This document shows, in pieces, positions 2,214-10,791 of a DNA stretch of 28,236 nucleotides. The stretch's first letter is position 1. Every line of letters begins with the position of its first letter. The notes under the pieces are model-generated. The model was not told the DNA's origin. It searched no databases and saw nothing but the letters and a program-made list of their open reading frames with translations. The position numbers and the translations under genes were made by a program. This DNA comes from Geodermatophilaceae bacterium (lineage in GTDB: Bacteria; Actinomycetota; Actinomycetes; Mycobacteriales; Geodermatophilaceae). Location: contig JACCUF010000079.1 in assembly GCA_013811975.1 (NCBI GenBank), positions 1 to 28,236 on the forward strand. The letters run 5' to 3'.

Positions 2214-3446
2214 TCAACTTCGGCCGATGCGTACCGGGACGTCGAGTTCGACATTGGTCAACGAACCGTGGTAGCCGACAAGTGAGTGCGCGCCGGGCTC
2301 GCGACGACTCGCGGTGAAGGCGACACCGCCTCGCGCCCAGGACAGCACATCGCCGATCCGCGCCGCGTGCGCTCTGGTCACCGTGGACCCGAAGAGGCCT
2401 TCGTCGATCGCCTGCTCTCGAGTGAGCACCCAGGCCCGGTCGCCAAGAACCATGGTCCAGGTCGCCGCCACGTCTGCTGTGGCGCCCGGTTGGGTGTAGA
2501 CGTAACGCGCTCGCGGTTCACCGGCGACCAGACGCACCCCGCTCGCCAACGCAACCGCGCCATCGGAACCGGGCTCGTCCTCGGCCGCATCCAGGTCGAT
2601 CTTGTCGCAGTCCTCGACATCGAGCATGCCGTGATCCGCGGTGACGACAAGAGCGGTGTCCGGCCCGATCCCGGACAGGATCGACGCGACTATCGAATCC
2701 ACTTGACCGAGCTCGAACTTCCAGGCGTCACTGGTGCAGCCGCGAATGTGCCCGGTCATGTCGAGGCCACCGTGATACGCGTAGAGCAGCGAAGGCTCGC
2801 CATCTTCGGCGCAACGAACGGCTCGGGCCACCAGATCGCCTGGGCTGACCGCGTCCAGATATCTGGCCCCGCGGTAGGTCGCCTCGGTCAGACCCGACCC
2901 GATGAACCGCGCGGGCCCCGCAGCCTGGACACACACGCCGGCCTTGCGTGCGCGCTCGAATACCGTGGGCGCCGGCTGCCATTCATCCGGGGGTGGGTCG
3001 GTACGCCAGTCGATGTGAGTGAGCAGCCGATCAGTGCCGGGAATGGCGACGGTGAAGCCGACAATGCCGTGCTCGCCCGGTGGCACGCCGGTGCTGAGGG
3101 ACGCCAAACTGACGGGAGTCGTCGACGGGCTCGCGGCCTGGAGTGCCCCGACCGGGCTGGCCAGGGACGTCAAAACCGGGGCGGCGTCGGGGTTCTCAGC
3201 GAGATTGTGCTCCCCCAGCCCGTCTATGAGTAGCAGGACGATATGGCGCACATCGGTCAGCGCCGGGGTCAAACCCAGGACGTCATCGAATCCGGCAACC
3301 CCGAGCCCGGCCATGATGGAGGGCAACAGTTCGGCGAGGCTGCCTTTGCCGTACGCCGGAACTGACAATCCCTCGGGCCTGGCGGTTTTCGGTCCGGTCC
3401 GCACTGAGGGTCCCGGTTGGGCAGCCAGATGCTCCAGTCCGGTCAT
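2214..3446 (-). CDS. Alkaline phosphatase superfamily nucleotide pyrophosphatase/phosphodiesterase
   Basis: Motifs LLIDGLG, SPSTT (Thr nucleophile), LDMTGH, VTADHG and GYHGS give a full metal-ligand set. Start placed at ATG 3446, which forms an ATGA overlap with the upstream methyltransferase stop. Confidence 0.85.
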   Translation of the reverse strand: MTGLEHLAAQPGPSVRTGPKTARPEGLSVPAYGKGSLAELLPSIMAGLGVAGFDDVLGLTPALTDVRHIVLLLIDGLGEHNLAENPDAAPVLTSLASPVGALQAASPSTTPVSLASLSTGVPPGEHGIVGFTVAIPGTDRLLTHIDWRTDPPPDEWQPAPTVFERARKAGVCVQAAGPARFIGSGLTEATYRGARYLDAVSPGDLVARAVRCAEDGEPSLLYAYHGGLDMTGHIRGCTSDAWKFELGQVDSIVASILSGIGPDTALVVTADHGMLDVEDCDKIDLDAAEDEPGSDGAVALASGVRLVAGEPRARYVYTQPGATADVAATWTMVLGDRAWVLTREQAIDEGLFGSTVTRAHAARIGDVLSWARGGVAFTASRREPGAHSLVGYHGSLTNVELDVPVRIGRS

Positions 3447-4165
3447 CGGCGGCACAGCAGGTGCAGGTCGGTCGCTAGATCACGGTAGGGCGAGCGCTCG
3501 GCGAGAACGATCTCGAGTTCTCGTACGGCAGAACTCTGTTCGGCACCTACCTCAGGCGCCGGCAACAGATCGGCGACCACCCGTACCCCGTGCCACAGCT
3601 CGACCGACAACCCTGCCTGCGCGACCAGGCTGTGCAGTTCGTCGATGTCGAAGCGTCGGTGCCGCGTCCCGTCCGACTGCCCATGGAGCAAGGCGAGCGC
3701 CCCCTCGGGGCGGCCGCCGATGGCTCGGGACAGGACCGCGGCCGCCTGGTTGGCCGCGAGCAGGCTGACCCACCCGCCCGTCCGTACACAAGCGGCCAAC
3801 TCAGCGGCGGCCGATGACGGCTCGTCGACGTATTCCAGGACGTGGTGACAGAGCACCAGGTCGGCGCTACCGGCCGACACGACTTCGGCCAGCCGGTCAC
3901 CGTCGCCCTGGATCCCGTTCACCGATCCGGCGACCTCGGCTGCCTGAGCCCGGCGGGCCAGCAGCGCCAGGGCATCTGGACTCGGGTCGACGACGGTGAC
4001 GGTGTGCCCACGCTGGGCAAGGGGTACAGCGAACCCCCCGGTGCCGCCGCCCACATCCAGGACGCGCAGTGGCCCGGCACGCAGAATCGGTTCCAACGCT
4101 GCCCACACTGCCGCCGCCCGCGTCGACCCGGGATCTGGCGGACTTGTTGCTGAAGAGGACATCAT
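3443..4165 (-). CDS. Class I SAM-dependent methyltransferase
   Basis: Motif I VLDVGGGTG, motif II VVDPS, and ADLVLCHHVLEYV. Confidence 0.9.
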   Translation of the reverse strand: MMSSSATSPPDPGSTRAAAVWAALEPILRAGPLRVLDVGGGTGGFAVPLAQRGHTVTVVDPSPDALALLARRAQAAEVAGSVNGIQGDGDRLAEVVSAGSADLVLCHHVLEYVDEPSSAAAELAACVRTGGWVSLLAANQAAAVLSRAIGGRPEGALALLHGQSDGTRHRRFDIDELHSLVAQAGLSVELWHGVRVVADLLPAPEVGAEQSSAVRELEIVLAERSPYRDLATDLHLLCRR

Positions 4166-4218: not shown

Positions 4219-7200
4219 TCAGTGGCCGCTGCTGCCCGGGCTGGCGTGCCAGAGCTTGCGGGGTGCGGACTTGGTGTCCTCACCCGGTGGTTTCAGATCG
4301 GAGTATGGCGACATCCGGAAACCGGTGGGGTGCACCAGCACGGGCCGGGCCATCACCGGTCGTGACGAGCGAGCCTGCGCTGCACCCTGGATGGCTTGCT
4401 CGGTGAAGTCCGGCGTCTGGACCATCAGGTCGGCAACCGCATCGATGCCGTCGGAATTCCACGCCTCATACAGCGTCGGCAGCTCCCATGCACCGGTCGC
4501 CCGCAACGAGATCCCCCGCGGTCCGGTCCGGCGTATCTCCCCGCGGATGACCAGCAGCCAGGAGTGGAAGACCGTTGCGGCATATGGTCCCTGGGCGTCC
4601 TCGAAGAAGGTCGCATCCGCGCAACCCGTACCGTCGTCCAGGGTCACGAAGACCACCCGCCGCCCCGAGCGCACCGGCGGGGTCTGGGTGGCCACCTTCA
4701 CCCCGGCCACCAGAACCTCGGACTTGCTCCGGGTGCCCAGCAGGTCCTTGGACCGGATGATGCCGAGTGCGGTGAACAGCGGGGTGTAGAAGTCCACGAC
4801 ATGCTGGCTGGCATCCAGGCCGAGTACTTCCAATTCCGCGCTGACCCTTTCGGCGGCGGTCATCTCCGGCAGTCCACCGGCCGACCCAGCCAGCTCCCGG
4901 TCGTCCGGCGTCGGGAAGTCGAAGACCAGTTGGGTCCCTCCTGCAGCCGCCGAACGCCGCCGGCCGCGTGGGGTGAGTGTCCCGGTGGCCCTCTTGGCAC
5001 CGCGCACCCATTCGTCGAGTTCCTTGCACTGCAGCAGCAGGTCCCGCCGGTTCACCGTTCCCCGCCGGCGTACCGGACTGGCCCGCCCGATCCGGTAGAG
5101 CGAGTCGAATCCACCCGCCACGATCAGCCGCTCCACGATCGGGCGGGAGGCACCGGCCCGGTAGAAGAAGTCCGACAGGCCGGCGTACGGCCGACCAGCC
5201 ACGATGCCGGCCACCTCCGTCTCGTTGATGCCCTTGACGTCGGCCAGGGACAGCCGGATGCCGTACCGGGTGGGGTCGGGCATCCCCGCCGGCAACCACT
5301 CCGGCGGCGCCCAGGTTGTTGTTGCCGTCCGCAGTTCGTCAGGCATTGCTTCGACAGGCATTCGTTCCATTCGGTAGACGCCGTCGGAGACGTTCACGTC
5401 CAAGCCCAGGACCGGGATGCCGAAGTTGCGGGCGTCATCGAGGATCAGCCGCTTGGGATACATCCCGGGATCGTGGGTCAGCACCCCGGCGACGAAGGCC
5501 GCGGTGTGGTGCGCCTTGAGCCAGGCGGACTGGTAGGTCGGCAGCGCGAAAGCAGCGGCATGTGCCTTGCAGAACCCGAACGAGCCAAAGGCCGCCAGCA
5601 CCTCCCAGATCCGTTCGGCATCCGGCAGCGAGTACCCGTTCTTGAGCGCGATCGGCATGAACCATGCCTGCACCTCGGGATGACCGTCCTTGTGCCCCAA
5701 GGCCCGACGCACCTCGTCGGCTTCGGCCAGGGTGACCCCGGTGACCGTGTGCACGATCTCGAGCACTTGCTCGTGGAAGACGACGACGCCTCCGGTCTGC
5801 TCCAGGGAGTACCGCAGGCTCTCGTGGAGGTACGCCGGCTCCGCCCAGCCCTGCCGGGCCATCAGGAACGGGGTGACCATGTCGCTCTTGACCGGGCCGG
5901 GCCGGAACAGCGAGATGTCGATGATGATGTCCTCGAAGCTGCTGGGAGCGAATTTGCCGACCAACTCACGCTGCCCAGGCGACTCGATCTGGAACATCCC
6001 GAGAGTGCGGGTGGACTGGATGAGCTGGTAGGTCGTCGGGTCATCGCGCGGGATGGCGTCGATGTCCACCTGCACCCCGTCGGTCCGGGCGACCTCATCG
6101 ATCGCGTGCGCGATCGCCGACTGCATCCGGATGCCGAGCAGGTCGAGCTTGAGCAGGCCGAGTTCCTCGACGTCGTCCTTGTCGAACTGGCTCATCGGGT
6201 ACCCAAGGAAGCTGCGCTCGACCGGAGTCCGATCGAGCAGAGTGCGGTCGGACAGCAGCACCCCGCAGGGATGCAGGGCGATATGGCGGGGCAGGCCATC
6301 GAGGCTCTCCACCAGGTCGAAGAGCAACTCGAGCTTGGCTTGCGCGATCCCACTGGCCCGCAACTCCGGGAGGTCGCGCAAGGCTGCCCTGGCCTGGTTG
6401 GCCCGGATGTGCGGGAAGGCCTTGGCCAGCGTGTCGATCTCACCCAGCGGCATCCCGAGTGCCGCACCGACGTCGCGGATCGCGTGGCGTACCCGATAGG
6501 TGTCCATCATCGACACGCAGCTGACCCGGTCGTCGCCGTACCGCTCGATCACCGCGTCATAGACCTCCATCCGACGCGCGGACTCCACGTCGATGTCGAT
6601 GTCGGGCAACGCCTTTCGTAGCGGTGACAGGAACCGCTCCATCAGCAGTCGGTAGCGGATCGGATCCACGTCGGAGATCCCCAACAGGTAGGTGACCAGG
6701 CTGCCAGCCCCTGAGCCGCGGGCGGCCGCGCGTACCCCCATCGAGCGGATCAGGTCGGCGACATCGGCGACGGTCAGGAAGTACGACGGATAGCCCATCT
6801 TTCCGATGACAGCCAGCTCGTCGTTCAAACGTCGGCGTACGGCGTCGGTGTCGGCCATTCCACGTTGACCGAATCCTGCCTCACAGCGCTGGGAGAGCAC
6901 TTCTGCTTCGCACAGTCCCGCTTCGCTCGGAGCGCGCACGACATCGAGTTCCGGAAAGTGCACCGTGCCCAGGCCCAGATCCCGCCGCGGGTCGACCGCA
7001 CACTGCTCGGCCAACCGGGAGGTCGCGGTGAGCAACCGAGCGCCGATCTCGTCGTCGGCGAGGTCCGCGGCGATCTCAGCCATCTCCTTGCCGGACTTGA
7101 GATAACCCTCGGCGCTGCGCCGGTCGAGGTGGCGCAGGTCGAGCGGAACCAGCCGCCGGCTCGCGTCAAGGACGTCCGCGGTCGGGGCGTCGAACGGGTC

Positions 7201-7875
7201 GACGTAGCGGACCGCATTGGTGAGCACCATCGGCGCGGCGGTGCGCAGACCGAAGCGGAGCATCGATTCCGCCTTGATTCGATCCCCCTGAGCCCGGTGG
7301 TGGACGACTTCGAGATAGACCTGCTGGGTGCCGAGGCGCTCTCGCCAGGCCTCTAGTTCGGCCTCGGCGAGGTCGGGCCGGCGAGTAGCCAGCGCCCGGC
7401 CGACCGTGGAGTCCGGGCCGAGCAGGGCGACCAGGGCGCCGTCGCGGGCATGCTCGGCCACCAGATCTCGGCTGCTGACCGGCATTCCTCGTTCCCCGGC
7501 CAGATGGGTGGCACTGGTCAGCCGGCACAATGCTCGCCATCCGGTCCCGGCCCGGGCGAGCACGGTGACCCGGGGCAATCGGGCATCCACGCTGGCCCCG
7601 CCGCGGGCCGGGGACTTGCGACCGGGCGGTCGTACGGGTGGCTGTCCGGCCACCGAACCGAGGGCCAGGTCCAGTCCGAAGATCGGCCGGATGGCGGCCT
7701 CGCGGCAAGCCACCGCGAACTTCACCGCACCGGACAGGCCGTCGCGGTCGGTCAGCGCCAGGGCGGTCATCCCGTGGTCGGCAGCACGTTCCACCAGGTC
7801 GGAGGGGTGGTTGGCGCCGTACCGCAGGGAGTAGCCGGATGCGACATGCAGATGGACGTACGGATCACCGCTCAT
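4219..7875 (-). CDS. dnaE2: Error-prone DNA polymerase III alpha subunit (DnaE2-type, divergent actinobacterial second copy)
   Basis: Motifs HLHVASGYS (PHP), RGSGAGS, PDIDID and LKLDLLG (catalytic Asp), GFCKAHA, HhH and OB-fold regions, and a C-terminal KLWHASPGSSG. PHP ligands are degenerate (TDRDG, TNAVRY). A LexA box lies upstream. Start placed at ATG 7875 (MSGDPYVHLH). Confidence 0.9.
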   Translation of the reverse strand: MSGDPYVHLHVASGYSLRYGANHPSDLVERAADHGMTALALTDRDGLSGAVKFAVACREAAIRPIFGLDLALGSVAGQPPVRPPGRKSPARGGASVDARLPRVTVLARAGTGWRALCRLTSATHLAGERGMPVSSRDLVAEHARDGALVALLGPDSTVGRALATRRPDLAEAELEAWRERLGTQQVYLEVVHHRAQGDRIKAESMLRFGLRTAAPMVLTNAVRYVDPFDAPTADVLDASRRLVPLDLRHLDRRSAEGYLKSGKEMAEIAADLADDEIGARLLTATSRLAEQCAVDPRRDLGLGTVHFPELDVVRAPSEAGLCEAEVLSQRCEAGFGQRGMADTDAVRRRLNDELAVIGKMGYPSYFLTVADVADLIRSMGVRAAARGSGAGSLVTYLLGISDVDPIRYRLLMERFLSPLRKALPDIDIDVESARRMEVYDAVIERYGDDRVSCVSMMDTYRVRHAIRDVGAALGMPLGEIDTLAKAFPHIRANQARAALRDLPELRASGIAQAKLELLFDLVESLDGLPRHIALHPCGVLLSDRTLLDRTPVERSFLGYPMSQFDKDDVEELGLLKLDLLGIRMQSAIAHAIDEVARTDGVQVDIDAIPRDDPTTYQLIQSTRTLGMFQIESPGQRELVGKFAPSSFEDIIIDISLFRPGPVKSDMVTPFLMARQGWAEPAYLHESLRYSLEQTGGVVVFHEQVLEIVHTVTGVTLAEADEVRRALGHKDGHPEVQAWFMPIALKNGYSLPDAERIWEVLAAFGSFGFCKAHAAAFALPTYQSAWLKAHHTAAFVAGVLTHDPGMYPKRLILDDARNFGIPVLGLDVNVSDGVYRMERMPVEAMPDELRTATTTWAPPEWLPAGMPDPTRYGIRLSLADVKGINETEVAGIVAGRPYAGLSDFFYRAGASRPIVERLIVAGGFDSLYRIGRASPVRRRGTVNRRDLLLQCKELDEWVRGAKRATGTLTPRGRRRSAAAGGTQLVFDFPTPDDRELAGSAGGLPEMTAAERVSAELEVLGLDASQHVVDFYTPLFTALGIIRSKDLLGTRSKSEVLVAGVKVATQTPPVRSGRRVVFVTLDDGTGCADATFFEDAQGPYAATVFHSWLLVIRGEIRRTGPRGISLRATGAWELPTLYEAWNSDGIDAVADLMVQTPDFTEQAIQGAAQARSSRPVMARPVLVHPTGFRMSPYSDLKPPGEDTKSAPRKLWHASPGSSGH

Positions 7876-7881
7876 CTCAGA

Positions 7882-7917
7882 AACCCAGTTTGGGTGTGAT
7901 GCACCCAATTTGGGTGT
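7882..7917. repeat. Tandem pair of 15-bp palindromic motifs ACCCA(G/A)TTTGGGTGT
   Basis: Copies at 7883-7897 and 7903-7917 (period 20, one mismatch). CACCCAA-T-TTGGGTG (7902-7916) is a perfect odd palindrome. Confidence 0.75.
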
Positions 7918-7919
7918 AG

Positions 7920-8153
7920 ACGCAGGCAGCAGCAGGGGTGTCGCTGTCGGAGTACGTGCTCACCGAGCTGATCCAGGTCGCCGGCCGCTCGACCAACGCC
8001 CAGATACTCCTTCGCGCAGCGCTTCGCCCGGGAAGTTTCAGTCGAGAAGAGATCGAAGCCCTCGACGTACCGTTGGTCACCACCGATGCCCGGCTCGGCC
8101 GCGCGCCCGGTCGCCGATGCGCCGTCGAGGTCTTCGGACAGCCCAGCGACTAA
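7920..8153 (+). pseudogene. Collapsed vapB/vapC toxin-antitoxin remnant (antitoxin C-half fused in frame to the PIN toxin C-terminus)
   Basis: The frame reads QAAAGVSLSEYVLTELIQVAGRSTNAQILLRAA..SREEI, resembling the second helix of a FitA/VapB RHH antitoxin. It runs straight into EALDVPLVTTDARLGRAPGRRCAVEVF, a typical VapC C-terminus. An in-frame TAG lies at 7917-7919, and the RHH N-terminus and most of the PIN domain are absent. Confidence 0.7.
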
Positions 8154-8161
8154 CCGCCCGC

Positions 8162-8212
8162 AGTAACTGGTCACCTGCCGCATATCGCACCTGCGGCAGG
8201 TGACCAATTACT
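8162..8212. repeat. Long inverted repeat (21-bp arms, 1 mismatch, 9-nt loop); REP-like element or terminator
   Basis: AGTAACTGGTCACCTGCCGCA (8162-8182) pairs with TGCGGCAGGTGACCAATTACT (8192-8212). Confidence 0.8.
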
Positions 8213-8226
8213 TGGCGAGGACCTGC

Positions 8227-8658
8227 TCACTCCCTGTCGCCCCCCGTCACCCTTTCCGCGAGGCGGCAGAACGTAGCCACCTCGCGGATCAGGTCATCGG
8301 CCTCCCGGGCAGTCACCGAACCGACGAGTCCGGCCTCGGCAGCGGCCCGCTTACCGGCGCCGGCAGCGAAAAACCCGGCCCACTCCCCCAGCTCCGGAGC
8401 CAACTCGATCAGCAGATCCCAGGCACTGCGCAATCCCCGCCGACGCGGCCGAACCCCCGACTCACTGCGTTGGGCGAGTACCGCTGCAGCGGCCCGCAGA
8501 GCAGCCAGATGTGCTCGGGCATAACGGGGTTCGGGCTCGGGCTCGGTGGCTGCCTCGACCAGTTCGGTCCGCGCCTGAGCCAGTAACGACGCCGCCGAAC
8601 CGCGCGCTTCAGGCCCGGCGCTGGATTGTGCTGTTCTGGCCGGAGAAGAATCAGTCAT
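8227..8658 (-). CDS. SAV_6107-family HEPN-domain protein
   Basis: Motifs LLAQAR..L.EA, RYARAHLAALRAAAAVLA, SAWDLL.ELAPELGEWAGFFAAGA.KRAAAEAG and READDL. Start ATG 8658 overlaps the DUF6504 stop (ATGACTGA). Confidence 0.8.
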   Translation of the reverse strand: MTDSSPARTAQSSAGPEARGSAASLLAQARTELVEAATEPEPEPRYARAHLAALRAAAAVLAQRSESGVRPRRRGLRSAWDLLIELAPELGEWAGFFAAGAGKRAAAEAGLVGSVTAREADDLIREVATFCRLAERVTGGDRE

Positions 8659-8965
8659 GGACACGGGCCAGTACCCACAGGTTGGCCGCCTCGTCCCAGC
8701 ACAGGTCGTAGACTCCGCCGGGAGCACCGCTTGCACCCTGGCCGGGCCGAGTCTCCACTCGCCACCAGTGAAGTTGCACGATCGCCTCGCCGCCGCTGAA
8801 TCGGCGCCACCAGGGACCGGACTCCACCCAGTGATCGAGAACGGCAGCCACGTCGTACAGACGCTCGCGCCACCAAAAACTGTGCGGTGTCACGCTTGAG
8901 TACACCCGGGTGCCCGCTTCCACGTCGATCGGCTCACCCCGACCCGCCTCTGGCAGACGGCTCAT
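8651..8965 (-). CDS. DUF6504-family protein (resembles the ImuB C-terminal domain)
   Basis: 104 aa with EPIDV..P.SFWWR.RLY.V..VLDHWVE.GPWW..WWRVE..GVYDL.WD..WVLARVHD. A clear AGGAGG SD precedes ATG 8965. Confidence 0.75.
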   Translation of the reverse strand: MSRLPEAGRGEPIDVEAGTRVYSSVTPHSFWWRERLYDVAAVLDHWVESGPWWRRFSGGEAIVQLHWWRVETRPGQGASGAPGGVYDLCWDEAANLWVLARVHD

Positions 8966-9014
8966 GAGCGCTAGACCTCCTGCACCTGAAACGACCAGCA
9001 CCAACCACGCCGCC

Positions 9015-9061
9015 ACTGAGCCGGAGCCGATACGGGTCGAGGGCCTCGGCCCCGGCTCAGT
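9015..9061. other. Stable hairpin in the 5' leader of the DUF6504 operon
   Basis: ACTGAGCCGG (9015-9024) pairs with CCGGCTCAGT (9052-9061), plus an inner GCCGA/TCGGC stem. Confidence 0.55.
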
Positions 9062-9094
9062 TCGTTCGGCACTTCTGAAGCAGTGCCCGATCAT

Positions 9095-9110
9095 TCGAAC
9101 ATGTGTTCGA
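9095..9110. promoter_or_regulatory. LexA binding site (actinobacterial SOS box)
   Basis: TCGAAC-ATGT-GTTCGA is an exact match to TCGAAC-N4-GTTCGA. The palindrome extends to 10-bp arms (9091-9114), about 130 bp upstream of the DUF6504-HEPN-dnaE2 cluster. Confidence 0.9.
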
Positions 9111-9190
9111 ATGACGGTCATCAGTGAACAACCTCAACCGCTCGAAGTCAACCCCGGATCTCCACATGGACCGTCACCTAGGCTCGGGGC

Positions 9191-9502
9191 GTGATCATGC
9201 ATCTGGCGACCTTTACCTGGCGTCCCGACGTGACCAACGACGACGTGGTGGCCGTCCTCGAAGGACTGAGCTCGCTGCCCGACCAGATTCCTGAACTGCG
9301 CTCCTACAGTTTCGGCCCGGACCTCGGACTGCGCGACGGCAACGCCGACTTCGCGGTCGCCGCCGTGCTGGACAGTCCGGAGACGCTACCGGCCTACCTG
9401 GACCATCCCGAGCACGTGCGGATCCTCAAGGAAATCATCGCCCCGCTGATCGCGACCCGTCAGGCGGTTCAGATCGAACTTCCTCCGGAGACTGCACCCT
9501 GA
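9191..9502 (+). CDS. Dabb family (stress-responsive alpha/beta barrel) protein
   Basis: Motifs MIMHLATFTW, L..LPDQIPELRSY.FG.DLG, DFAVAAV.DS..L..Y..HPEH. TAGGCT lies 6 nt before the GTG. Confidence 0.85.
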   Translation: MIMHLATFTWRPDVTNDDVVAVLEGLSSLPDQIPELRSYSFGPDLGLRDGNADFAVAAVLDSPETLPAYLDHPEHVRILKEIIAPLIATRQAVQIELPPETAP

Positions 9503-9546: not shown

Positions 9547-10791
9547 CTAGGCCGGGCGGGTTTCGGGCATCCTGATCGCCAGCACCACGCCGATCGCTAG
9601 CACTGCCGTCGTCAGCGCGAACCCGGTGGAATAGCCGGCGGCCGGGTTCGACCCCCAGCCTCCACTGTCGACCAACGCCGATGCGGCGAGCGGCCCGATC
9701 ATCGCCCCGACGTCGATAGCCATCTGGTAGAAAGCCACGGCACCGCCGCTCCTGGCCGGGGCCACATCGGCGACAATGGCCGCCGGAGCGACCGCGAGGA
9801 TGCCGGTACCGACTCCGGATACGGCCATCGCGACCAGGAACAGCATCAGATTTGCGGGCGCGATGAGGATCGCCATGCCCGCAGTCGCCGTCGTCGTCCC
9901 GAGGATCATCAGCGGCCTACGCCCCACCCGGTCAGCCCAGCGTCCGGTGGGGAAGAGCGCCACCGCGTTGGCCACTGCGAAGACGCCAAGCCCGATGCCC
10001 GTCCACTCCGTGCCCAACCCCAGCGCCTCTCCGACGAACAGCGGGATCAACGAGAAGCGCACGCCGAAGGCCAACCATCCGATTCCGAGGCTGGCACCGA
10101 TCGCCGCGCGGTAGGCCGGAAGACGCAACATCGATCCGATGCTGGCTGTGCCAGGCGGGCCGTCCTCGATCGAGGCGGACACGTGGACCGGCGGTGGAAG
10201 CCGGCGCAACGCGACGAAAGCGACAACCGTCGCAACGACAAGCAGCGCTCCGTAGATGAAGAACGGCAATCTCAGCGAGATCGCCGCCAGCGGTCCGCCG
10301 ACCACCGGTCCTGCGATCCCCCCGACCAGGAAGCCACCGAAGAACACGCTGTTGGCCCGACCGCGGACCTGCGGAGGTGAGGTTCGGATCAGCAGGACGA
10401 CGGCCGAGACAGTGAACATCGCCGAGCCCAGGCCGCCGAGACCTCGCAGGAACAGCAGTTGCGGGTAGCTCTGCGCGAAGCCGGCCGCACCGCTGGTGAC
10501 GGCGGCCAACCCGATTCCGGTTACCAGGACTGCGGCCTCACCGAACCGGTCTACCAGTCTGCCGGAGAACAGCGCGGACACGATCCGCATCCCGGCGAAG
10601 GCGGTGACCACCAAGGCCGCCAACGTACGGCTGACCCCGAACTCCAGCGCGAAGTCCGGGATGGCCGGGGCGACGATGCCATACCCGATGGCCACGCACC
10701 CAGCCACCAACGCCAGGATCCAGGCCTCGCGGGGCAACTTCGGAGTGCCGTTCGCAGAGCTGCCGGTGGTCTCGTCTCCCCCGGCACTCAC
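9547..10791 (-). CDS. MFS transporter (DHA1-like)
   Basis: 414 aa with about 12 hydrophobic segments and MFS motif A in both halves (GRLVDRFGE, GRWADRVGRR). Confidence 0.88.
   Translation of the reverse strand: MSAGGDETTGSSANGTPKLPREAWILALVAGCVAIGYGIVAPAIPDFALEFGVSRTLAALVVTAFAGMRIVSALFSGRLVDRFGEAAVLVTGIGLAAVTSGAAGFAQSYPQLLFLRGLGGLGSAMFTVSAVVLLIRTSPPQVRGRANSVFFGGFLVGGIAGPVVGGPLAAISLRLPFFIYGALLVVATVVAFVALRRLPPPVHVSASIEDGPPGTASIGSMLRLPAYRAAIGASLGIGWLAFGVRFSLIPLFVGEALGLGTEWTGIGLGVFAVANAVALFPTGRWADRVGRRPLMILGTTTATAGMAILIAPANLMLFLVAMAVSGVGTGILAVAPAAIVADVAPARSGGAVAFYQMAIDVGAMIGPLAASALVDSGGWGSNPAAGYSTGFALTTAVLAIGVVLAIRMPETRPA

Follow-up and report, generated by a model that had tools for sequence, protein, structure and literature searches.

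A probable LexA-regulated DnaE2/ImuB-C operon with a conserved HEPN gene and a leader hairpin in a Geodermatophilaceae genome

Which polymerase system is encoded by a dnaE2 gene that follows a LexA (SOS) box and is accompanied neither by imuA nor by imuB? DnaE2-based mutasomes drive damage-induced mutation, including mycobacterial drug-resistance mutations. The stretch of DNA analysed here (the window, 28,236 nucleotides) is contig C328 of a Geodermatophilaceae metagenome-assembled genome (MAG; 2.65 Mb, 476 contigs, 82% complete). It carries, behind a perfect SOS box, genes for a DUF6504 protein (ImuB-C), for a protein of HEPN fold and for DnaE2. An earlier note, made from the sequence alone, had proposed that these three genes form a minimal mutasome that is independent of ImuA and ImuB, with the DUF6504 and HEPN proteins as accessory subunits. 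Very probably, the locus is a LexA-repressed operon for translesion synthesis of the actinobacterial DnaE2B/free-standing ImuB-C type, which works without ImuA' and ImuB. Two components of its relatives, the HEPN gene and a hairpin in the leader, are not part of the published descriptions that could be searched.

Layout and predicted LexA control of the operon

On the minus strand, the SOS box is followed by a leader of 130 nt, by DUF6504 and HEPN, by 350 bp that lie outside either gene, and by dnaE2 (Table 1). The reading frames of DUF6504 and HEPN share 8 nt (ATGACTGA). The imuB-C gene stands alone beside dnaE2, 773 bp upstream of it and on the same strand. No Y-family or RecA-like gene was found within the 28 kb of the window. 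Pfam and the coordinates thus agree with the earlier note in the order of the genes on one strand behind the box and in the lack of imuA and imuB from these 28 kb. The three genes are, however, not contiguous, because an insert of 350 bp, which the note had not mentioned, splits HEPN from dnaE2.

Table 1. Features of the operon and of its surroundings (positions in the window)
Feature	Position	Strand	Basis
S-adenosylmethionine-dependent methyltransferase	3443..4165	-	Pfam methyltransferase domains; 49% identity to L007 12269-13105
dnaE2, ImuB-C-linked (DnaE2B-type) clade, 1219 aa	4219..7878	-	PHP, polymerase core, finger, HhH and OB domains (Pfam)
Two CACCCAAAnTGGGT-type palindromes just upstream of the vapB remnant	7882..7917		read from sequence
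Decayed toxin-antitoxin frame (71-77 codons): 5' part of a vapB-type antitoxin and last ~30 codons of a PIN-domain vapC	7920..8153	+	homology
Inverted repeat with 21-bp stem, 3' boundary of the vapBC remnant	8162..8212		minimum free energy -47.6 kcal/mol, z -7.8, 0/200 shuffles as stable
HEPN_SAV_6107 family protein, 143 aa	8227..8658	-	PF18726, E 8.3e-34
imuB-C, 104-aa DUF6504 protein (stand-alone ImuB C-terminal domain)	8651..8965	-	PF20114, E 2.4e-15
Leader hairpin, 16-18 bp stem, loop holding CUCGACC, between SOS box and imuB-C start codon	9015..9061	-	folding and covariance model
LexA (SOS) box, perfect palindrome TCGAAC-N4-GTTCGA = TCGAACATGTGTTCGA	9095..9110		motif scan

Two samples of related loci were used for comparison. 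The first comprised 16.5 kb around each of 40 HEPN_SAV_6107 genes from many families, which were scored with iterated profiles. The second comprised the 30 best-scoring loci of DUF6504, which is present in 89 of 151 class genomes. The class tallies for HEPN, ImuB and DUF6504 include up to four unpublished genomes (G006, G031, G035 and G042); no locus sequence from these was used in the locus comparisons. According to the HEPN alignment, the nearest relatives are a Frankiales MAG and a Nanopelagicales MAG, and the other matches are mostly from Streptomyces.

The SOS box is the sole match in the window, even if up to 2 mismatches are allowed. In the whole MAG, 7 perfect boxes were found, compared to 0.08 expected from base composition (~90-fold enrichment). 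The other six are located upstream of uvrA, two DUF222 (13E12-type) genes, a radical-SAM gene, dinB, and one gene without a family; except for that of dinB, they lie on contigs C71, C322, C127, C358 and C361. Judged by these genes, the set looks like an actinobacterial LexA regulon. The box, which the earlier note had recognized correctly, is conserved in related operons: with at most one mismatch, 39 of the 40 HEPN-sampled and 29 of the 30 DUF6504-sampled loci have it shortly before their first gene. This motif in the promoter region and its conservation in orthologous loci predict that the operon is under the control of LexA.

The region of the box is shared by a divergent gene for a Dabb protein (stress-responsive A/B barrel; 9191-9502, plus strand), which lies 96 nt from the box. 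It is followed on the opposite strand by a gene for an MFS transporter (9547-10791, minus strand).

ImuB-C, the polymerase and its known relatives

The AlphaFold model of the DUF6504 protein (pLDDT 82) has a predicted six-stranded all-beta fold. A Foldseek comparison with the Swiss-Prot models yielded a single real match, which is ImuB from Caulobacter (Q9A3J2; probability 1.00, TM 0.61, residues 8-104), whereas the PDB contained no match. The latter result is consistent with the novel fold that has been ascribed to ImuB-C (PMC12926913). Furthermore, the ImuB-C proteins listed in the supplement of that paper share the pattern of the DUF6504 alignment, namely FLWRGR, HWVE, WW, WRVE, GV(Y/F)DL and a terminal D. 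NCBIfam had no match for the DUF6504 protein, and PF20114 does not detect the C-termini of actinobacterial ImuB2. Judged by its modelled fold, the DUF6504 protein is ImuB's C-terminal domain, and the resemblance to this module that the earlier note had noticed is real.

In NCBIfam, the polymerase matches "DNA polymerase III subunit alpha" as well as "error-prone DNA polymerase", but reaches the cut-off of neither family. In a phylogenetic tree, it falls into a clade (support 100/100) with the polymerases of DUF6504-HEPN loci, to which it is 57-64% identical. Its identity to the DnaE1 of the MAG, to ImuB-linked DnaE2 and to DnaE2 linked to iPolY (inactive Y-family polymerase) is about 30-31% in each case. 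The palm aspartates are kept, as PDIDIDVES and LKLDLLGI align with the DnaE1 of the MAG, and DnaE2 is therefore predicted to be catalytically intact. In contrast, the metal site of its PHP domain is degenerate and reads HLHVASGYSLRYG (HLHVASGYS..RYG) instead of the intact HxHxH..LDG; the corresponding sequence of the replicative DnaE1, which has an intact PHP motif and is encoded on contig C341, is HLHVHTEYSMLDG. An internal clamp-like QLxLxL motif (QLVFDF in the window) is limited to the clade of ImuB-C-type DnaE2 and does not occur in the other two types. Since this DnaE2 has its own predicted clamp motif, ImuB would not be needed for clamp binding. The polymerase is probably a back-up enzyme of the error-prone kind.

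The C-terminus distinguishes the three types of DnaE2 as well. The canonical motif is SRDF[H/R] (PMC3919608), and the ImuB-linked and iPolY-linked enzymes of the sample end with SRDFR. The DnaE2 of the window lacks this motif and has the tail PRKLWHASPGSSG with the terminus PRKLWHASPGSSGH. In the loci L007-L043, L087, L097 and L197-L202, the ImuB-C-type DnaE2 has a tail of the form [RK]LWH[SA]SxGSxG whenever the genome bears HEPN, regardless of whether HEPN is adjacent or located elsewhere; both HEPN-less lineages (L197, L202) lack the tail. This suggests that tail and HEPN co-vary, albeit with two independent losses only.

One might argue that the polymerase is not a mutagenic translesion enzyme and plays another role after damage, for example in repair synthesis or the filling of gaps. 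Its score is slightly better with the replicative DnaE than with the error-prone model, it possesses its own clamp motif, and the mutant of S. coelicolor lacking dnaE2 has no UV or mutagenesis phenotype (PMC3919608). We nevertheless consider such a role improbable: SOS control, a degenerate PHP site and the linkage to ImuB-C and DinB are hallmarks of translesion-synthesis cassettes, and UV mutagenesis in Deinococcus depends on the ImuY-ImuB-C-DnaE2 cassette (PMC8072749).

The only Y-family gene of the MAG codes for a DinB of 430 amino acids and is located on the 3.7-kb contig C273 (L001 751-2043, minus strand). The protein has a full-length IMS match (E 5e-50) with the catalytic motifs DMDAFF and SLDEAF and carries a clamp-like QMLLG motif. 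Its C-terminus AAVRFGRGAV resembles RecA-NT, as judged by eye only. A perfect SOS box (L001 2025-2040) overlaps the start of the dinB reading frame, and a contig break lies between dinB and the operon. Because dinB is located downstream of dnaE2 in all 26 related operons and on C273 here, the MAG contains either a rearrangement or an assembly break at this point. The same two facts, the downstream dinB of the relatives and the LexA-boxed dinB on C273, show that the system, contrary to the earlier note, is not minimal.

A search of the whole MAG for the three genes named in the earlier note hence yielded a catalytic, SOS-boxed dinB and, within the limits of an incomplete genome, no imuA or imuB. 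Besides the IMS family, the queries were ImuA' and its neighbour ImuB from a same-order genome, the latter with 528 aa and a weak IMS match. As recA and lexA were not found either and the MAG is 82% complete, the lack of imuAB is weak evidence, and it is the relatives that have to decide.

In 26 of the 40 HEPN-sampled loci, the SOS box is followed by DUF6504, HEPN, DnaE2 and then a catalytic-type DinB, often with a methyltransferase gene between DnaE2 and DinB. The others contain HEPN, a weak Y-family protein (iPolY) and DnaE2 (4/40), imuB-dnaE2 followed by HEPN (1/40), HEPN-DinB (3/40), or HEPN alone (6/40). The order DUF6504, HEPN, DnaE2 was observed in 30 of the 30 best-scoring DUF6504 loci, and according to the coordinates HEPN is directly downstream of DUF6504 in at least 54 published genomes. 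As exceptions, HEPN is missing from small genomes (~1.5 Mb) in family f41 and from one genome in f12, which have the order SOS box, DUF6504, DnaE2, DinB. In family f5 (L198, L199), DUF6504 and DnaE2 form a pair by themselves without an SOS box, and the HEPN gene is located elsewhere in the genome.

ImuB occurs in about 31 of 121 class genomes, and there is a single overlap (G044) with the DUF6504-positive ones. In five complete genomes that bear the operon, all Y-family matches are full-length and catalytic-type, and none is of the weak partial IMS kind that is typical of ImuB. These relatives support the absence of ImuA and ImuB from genomes with the operon. The incomplete assembly, the non-recovery of recA and lexA, and the presence of ImuA'-ImuB in same-order genomes of genus g2 would be compatible with a canonical LexA-regulated imuA'-imuB that is hidden in the ~18% of the MAG missing from the assembly and works with DnaE2, as in the split mycobacterial cassette. 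We regard this as highly improbable, the least probable of the explanations considered here. In addition to the near-exclusive distribution and to the five complete genomes, it is contradicted by the polymerase itself, as ImuB-linked DnaE2 ends with SRDFR and lacks QLxLxL, whereas the DnaE2 of the window has the tail and the motif of the ImuB-C type.

Operons of this type have been known for some time. A report of 2013 describes solo ImuB-C genes that adjoin DnaE2 and occur together with an inactive DinB or in its absence (PMC3765255), and ImuA-less variants with solo ImuB-C were discussed in 2019 (PMC6511836). In 2026, DnaE2 was divided into the groups A, B and X, and two actinobacteria-only modules, DnaE2B-ImuBC from Arthrobacter alpinus and DnaE2B-PolY-ImuBC-RecA from Tessaracoccus lapidicaptus, were described with confident AlphaFold complexes from genomes without imuA and imuB; ImuB-C was proposed to contact the PHP domain of DnaE2 (PMC12926913). 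An ImuAB-independent polymerase system is supported by the relatives that have the operon without ImuB, but neither this idea nor the combination of an ImuAB-free DnaE2 with a solo ImuB-C is new. The locus of the window adds nothing to the basic concept; however, the commonest form of the operon in the class sample carries two parts that the searched published descriptions omit.

Most likely, the operon is of the PolY-containing kind and was damaged here by a vapBC insertion. In common with the module of T. lapidicaptus are the free-standing ImuB-C beside a DnaE2 of non-ImuAB type and the confinement to Actinobacteria. The two may also share a catalytic Y-family polymerase with a clamp-like motif and the RecA-NT-like motif mentioned above, and the lack of ImuA and ImuB, neither of which was found in the 82% complete MAG. 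In contrast to the published module, which has neither HEPN nor a leader hairpin, HEPN is located between imuB-C and dnaE2 here and in the 30 DUF6504-sampled loci; moreover, dinB of the MAG lies outside the operon on another contig with a box of its own, and the operon is split by the vapBC remnant. If dinB is ignored, the window resembles the A. alpinus module in that ImuB-C adjoins DnaE2B, but the MAG differs by the LexA-boxed dinB elsewhere and by the HEPN gene; the true two-gene form is represented by f5.

The ImuA'-ImuB-DnaE2 mutasome of M. tuberculosis has the SOS control and DnaE2 as catalytic subunit in common with the operon. Canonical systems comprise a dead Y-family ImuB and a RecA-like ImuA; in the window there is no ImuA' and no inactive Y-family body, and the sole Y-family match of the MAG is the catalytic DinB. 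Furthermore, the putative clamp motif (QLVFDF) is part of DnaE2 and not of ImuB, and the tail of DnaE2 is PRKLWHSSPGSSG instead of SRDF[H/R]. The cassette of Deinococcus likewise contains a stand-alone ImuB-C in an SOS-induced operon and is the only split-ImuB cassette with genetics (imuY and dnaE2 are needed for UV mutagenesis), but it belongs to another phylum, has an inactive Y-family ImuY, lexA in the operon and a DnaE2X, and lacks HEPN.

Several observations weigh against the assignment of the locus to a functional DnaE2B/ImuB-C operon. When the profile of 24 stand-alone DUF6504 proteins was compared by hhalign with that of 23 C-termini of actinobacterial ImuB, no significant match resulted (probability <1%; both profiles are shallow). 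The homology of DUF6504 and ImuB-C rests for this reason on Pfam, the fold match with Caulobacter ImuB and the published classification. The S. coelicolor DnaE2, whose mutant shows no UV or mutagenesis phenotype, is of a different DnaE2B subtype. All that is known of the actinobacterial systems without ImuA and ImuB comes from genome analysis and AlphaFold modelling. Near the SOS box, a promoter scan predicted no sigma-70-like promoter. The regulators LexA and RecA have to be assumed to be encoded in the unassembled part of the MAG. Finally, damage induction of dnaE2 may be weakened in this organism, because the insert adds 350 bp and a strong hairpin upstream of the gene.

For the DnaE2B/ImuB-C operon, the following sequence of events can be envisaged. 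Upon DNA damage, RecA-stimulated cleavage of LexA would free the box at 9095-9110, as the motif and its conservation suggest. The transcript would pass the structured leader and lead to the synthesis of ImuB-C and of the translationally coupled HEPN protein; ancestrally, it would have continued to dnaE2, the methyltransferase gene and dinB. The beta-barrel of ImuB-C may dock on the PHP domain of DnaE2, as in the published AlphaFold models of homologous pairs. DnaE2, which appears intact in catalysis and lacks a proofreading-competent PHP site, would reach the sliding clamp by means of its own QLxLxL motif, and the catalytic DinB would probably join together with RecA. HEPN would most likely act as an adaptor or regulator of this set of polymerases.

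The HEPN protein and the leader hairpin

AlphaFold models the HEPN protein as a bundle of four helices (pLDDT 88). According to Foldseek, the closest structures in the PDB are 2hsb (probability 1.00, TM 0.58/0.64), 1wol, 1ufb and 8xeh, all of them HEPN. The alignment of HEPN_SAV_6107 has a mean column identity of 46% with the invariant residues H50, R55, W80, W93, R104, E108 and G110. The canonical Rx4-6H motif is not found in the C-terminal helix; the C-terminal half contains KRAAAEAG and READDL and no histidine. A conserved R-x4-H (RYAxAH) is located in helix 2. In agreement with this, the motif has been tabulated as not conserved in HEPN_SAV_6107, a family for which no genomic context was stated (Anantharaman et al., PMC3710099). 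NCBIfam had no match for the protein.

Two small overlapping genes, one of which codes for a HEPN fold, call to mind an SOS-induced toxin-antitoxin or stress module without a role for a polymerase, in which HEPN would be an RNase toxin as HEPN proteins often are. The occurrence of HEPN_SAV_6107 without DnaE2 and the RYAxAH motif, though located in helix 2, would fit this explanation. It is very unlikely all the same: the C-terminal helix, in which HEPN RNases carry their motif, is devoid of it; among the neighbours of HEPN there is no MNT (nucleotidyltransferase antitoxin) partner, and PADLOC had no match for any of the three small proteins. DUF6504 is the ImuB-C domain and accompanies DnaE2 without HEPN in some lineages, and HEPN in turn occurs without DUF6504. 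With the HEPN-MNT systems (HepT/MntA; PDB 8xeh, 5yep, 7bxo), HEPN_SAV_6107 shares the four-helix fold; it differs in the missing motif and partner and in being vertically conserved and LexA-boxed. Unlike mobile toxin-antitoxin modules, the family is nearly always single-copy and occurs in 230 of 301 sampled class genomes.

The role of HEPN as an accessory subunit of DnaE2 is no more than a proposal; the same family also occurs alone, beside dinB only, beside imuB-dnaE2, and in genomes with ImuA'/ImuB. For the same reason, HEPN was rejected as a replacement of ImuA. Nor is it specific to the ImuB-C system. In genus g36 (L008 in G030; contig C74 of G115), a canonical imuB-dnaE2 pair is directly followed by a HEPN gene that has an SOS box and a hairpin of its own; three different DnaE2 architectures are therefore linked with HEPN. 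The feature that accompanies HEPN most constantly outside Streptomyces is the SOS box. In the Streptomyces group (L088-L166), HEPN stands alone; an SOS box is missing from the surrounding 1.5 kb in 75 of 78 loci, and the leader model described below matched none of 62 loci, almost all of them from Streptomyces. This lineage has therefore either lost the SOS control of HEPN or never acquired it.

In most loci, a long GC-rich hairpin with an invariant CUCGACC loop is located downstream of the box. For 28 leaders, which had been preselected for a stem of 6 bp or more enclosing the CUCGACC motif, the median stem length was 16 bp compared to 5 in shuffles, and 24 of the 28 stems exceeded all 200 shuffles. 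A covariance model was built from nine gap-free hairpins. Behind the box, it matched DUF6504 operons, HEPN-only loci (L009, L020, L026, L044), the HEPN-DinB locus L015 and the ImuB-adjacent locus L008, and it gave no match in four HEPN-less loci, in four iPolY loci, or in the other SOS-box contigs of the MAG. In the window, the match (9020-9056) is weak with 19 bits because the loop is enlarged.

In the alignment of 37 distinct matches, which was fitted to the model and thus favours the structure, 96% of the cells are paired, compared to 58% in shuffles and 37-51% when slid. Compensatory changes were found for 9 of 10 pairs; the covariation score of 0.94, compared to 0.22, was reached by none of 500 shuffles. 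G-U pairs on the sense strand point to a structure at the level of the RNA. RNAalifold predicted only 4 pairs for a MAFFT alignment of the leaders, because the stems are out of register there. Rfam contains no family for the leader or for the insert.

Many leaders of relatives (L169, L174, L176, L181, L186, L188, L190, L195, L087) possess a second hairpin with the loop GUGGGGAAGCG and, further downstream, the sequence CCUUCCCCC, which is complementary to this loop. A pseudoknot or an alternative pairing between the two elements is conceivable. The leader of the window keeps a degenerate remnant of the second hairpin only (GCGTGGTTGGTGC).

Most likely, HEPN is a non-catalytic, strongly conserved SOS protein that serves as adaptor or regulator of the polymerase set. 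Going further, HEPN_SAV_6107 and the hairpin with the CUCGACC loop may constitute an undescribed class-wide SOS module, in which HEPN regulates or adapts damage-induced translesion polymerases. This proposal is tentative, and we would not yet favour it over its negation. HEPN might bind the RNA of its own leader or, on the ImuB-C-type DnaE2, the PRKLWHSSPGSSG tail. The HEPN protein is not mentioned in PMC3765255, PMC6511836, PMC12926913 or the other papers on ImuB-C and DnaE2 that were compared, and the searchable literature contains no paper that combines "HEPN" and "dnaE2" and none that mentions DUF6504. In that literature, the HEPN gene and the leader hairpin, both of them conserved in a large part of the class, are the only undescribed elements. 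If a class-wide SOS module existed, the actinobacterial mutasomes would gain one conserved component beyond the published models. If HEPN were a regulator or a subunit of the polymerases, models of how these actinobacterial enzymes are recruited or restrained would have to be revised, all the more as HEPN persists even in genomes with ImuA'/ImuB.

The vapBC insertion and the downstream flank

The 350 bp between HEPN and dnaE2 (7879-8226) contain an oppositely oriented vapB'-'vapC fusion frame and a hairpin with a 21-bp stem (Table 1). The N-terminal ~58% of the fusion are 83-100% identical to 76-aa "plasmid stability" antitoxins (PF22513), and the C-terminal ~38% are 83-97% identical to the ends of VapC toxins of 127-133 aa (PF01850). 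NCBIfam had no match for the remnant frame. The palindromes at 7882-7917 are most simply explained as operator/promoter of the inserted vapBC. The hairpin, which has no U-tract, is possibly a bidirectional terminator or barrier. No repeat of the stretch was found elsewhere in the MAG, so the insert is not a repeated mobile element there. Among the closest intact homologues of the vapBC remnant (83-100% identity) are proteins named from MAGs of Actinomycetota and Geodermatophilaceae.

The Frankiales MAG (L087) is the closest named relative; its HEPN tail includes THQPVLP, and dnaE2 follows within few bases. Compared to this sequence, HEPN of the window diverges after RLAERV and then reaches a stop codon. 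Accordingly, a vapBC cassette with an internal deletion was inserted between HEPN and dnaE2, at the cost of ~20 codons of the 3' end of HEPN. The lost tail, which is conserved in relatives as LGLxHQPxLP, had been considered as a clamp-binding motif; this candidate was dropped owing to its poor fit to QLxLF and to its lack in several relatives.

These findings raise the possibility that the operon is decaying: vapBC would have uncoupled dnaE2 from the SOS promoter and cut HEPN, and the three genes would have ceased to act as a single damage-induced unit, such that dnaE2 is silent, expressed constitutively at a low level, or reached by read-through only. The stable hairpin within the 350 bp, the fact that HEPN and dnaE2 abut or nearly abut in 30 of 30 relatives as well as in the closest named one, the loss of the HEPN tail, and a dinB gene on a separate contig with its own box all speak for decay. 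So does the gap itself, in which no SOS-like box was found even with 2 mismatches. On the other hand, the dnaE2 frame is open over 1219 codons with all catalytic motifs present, termination at a hairpin without U-tract is not obligatory, the HEPN core is intact, and the natural relative L033 lacks the HEPN tail, too. Decay is thus a serious but rather unlikely alternative to a working DnaE2B/ImuB-C operon. As it carries a naturally disrupted copy, the organism of the window is a poor model for work on HEPN and the leader.

Downstream of dnaE2, the methyltransferase gene of the window is syntenic with the gene between dnaE2 and dinB of relatives. In a comparison of the flank (METHYLTRANSFERASE and dinB), the identity of 49% to the methyltransferase of L007 indicates that synteny holds up to this gene. 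Past it, the window carries a phosphodiesterase gene at the place where relatives have dinB.

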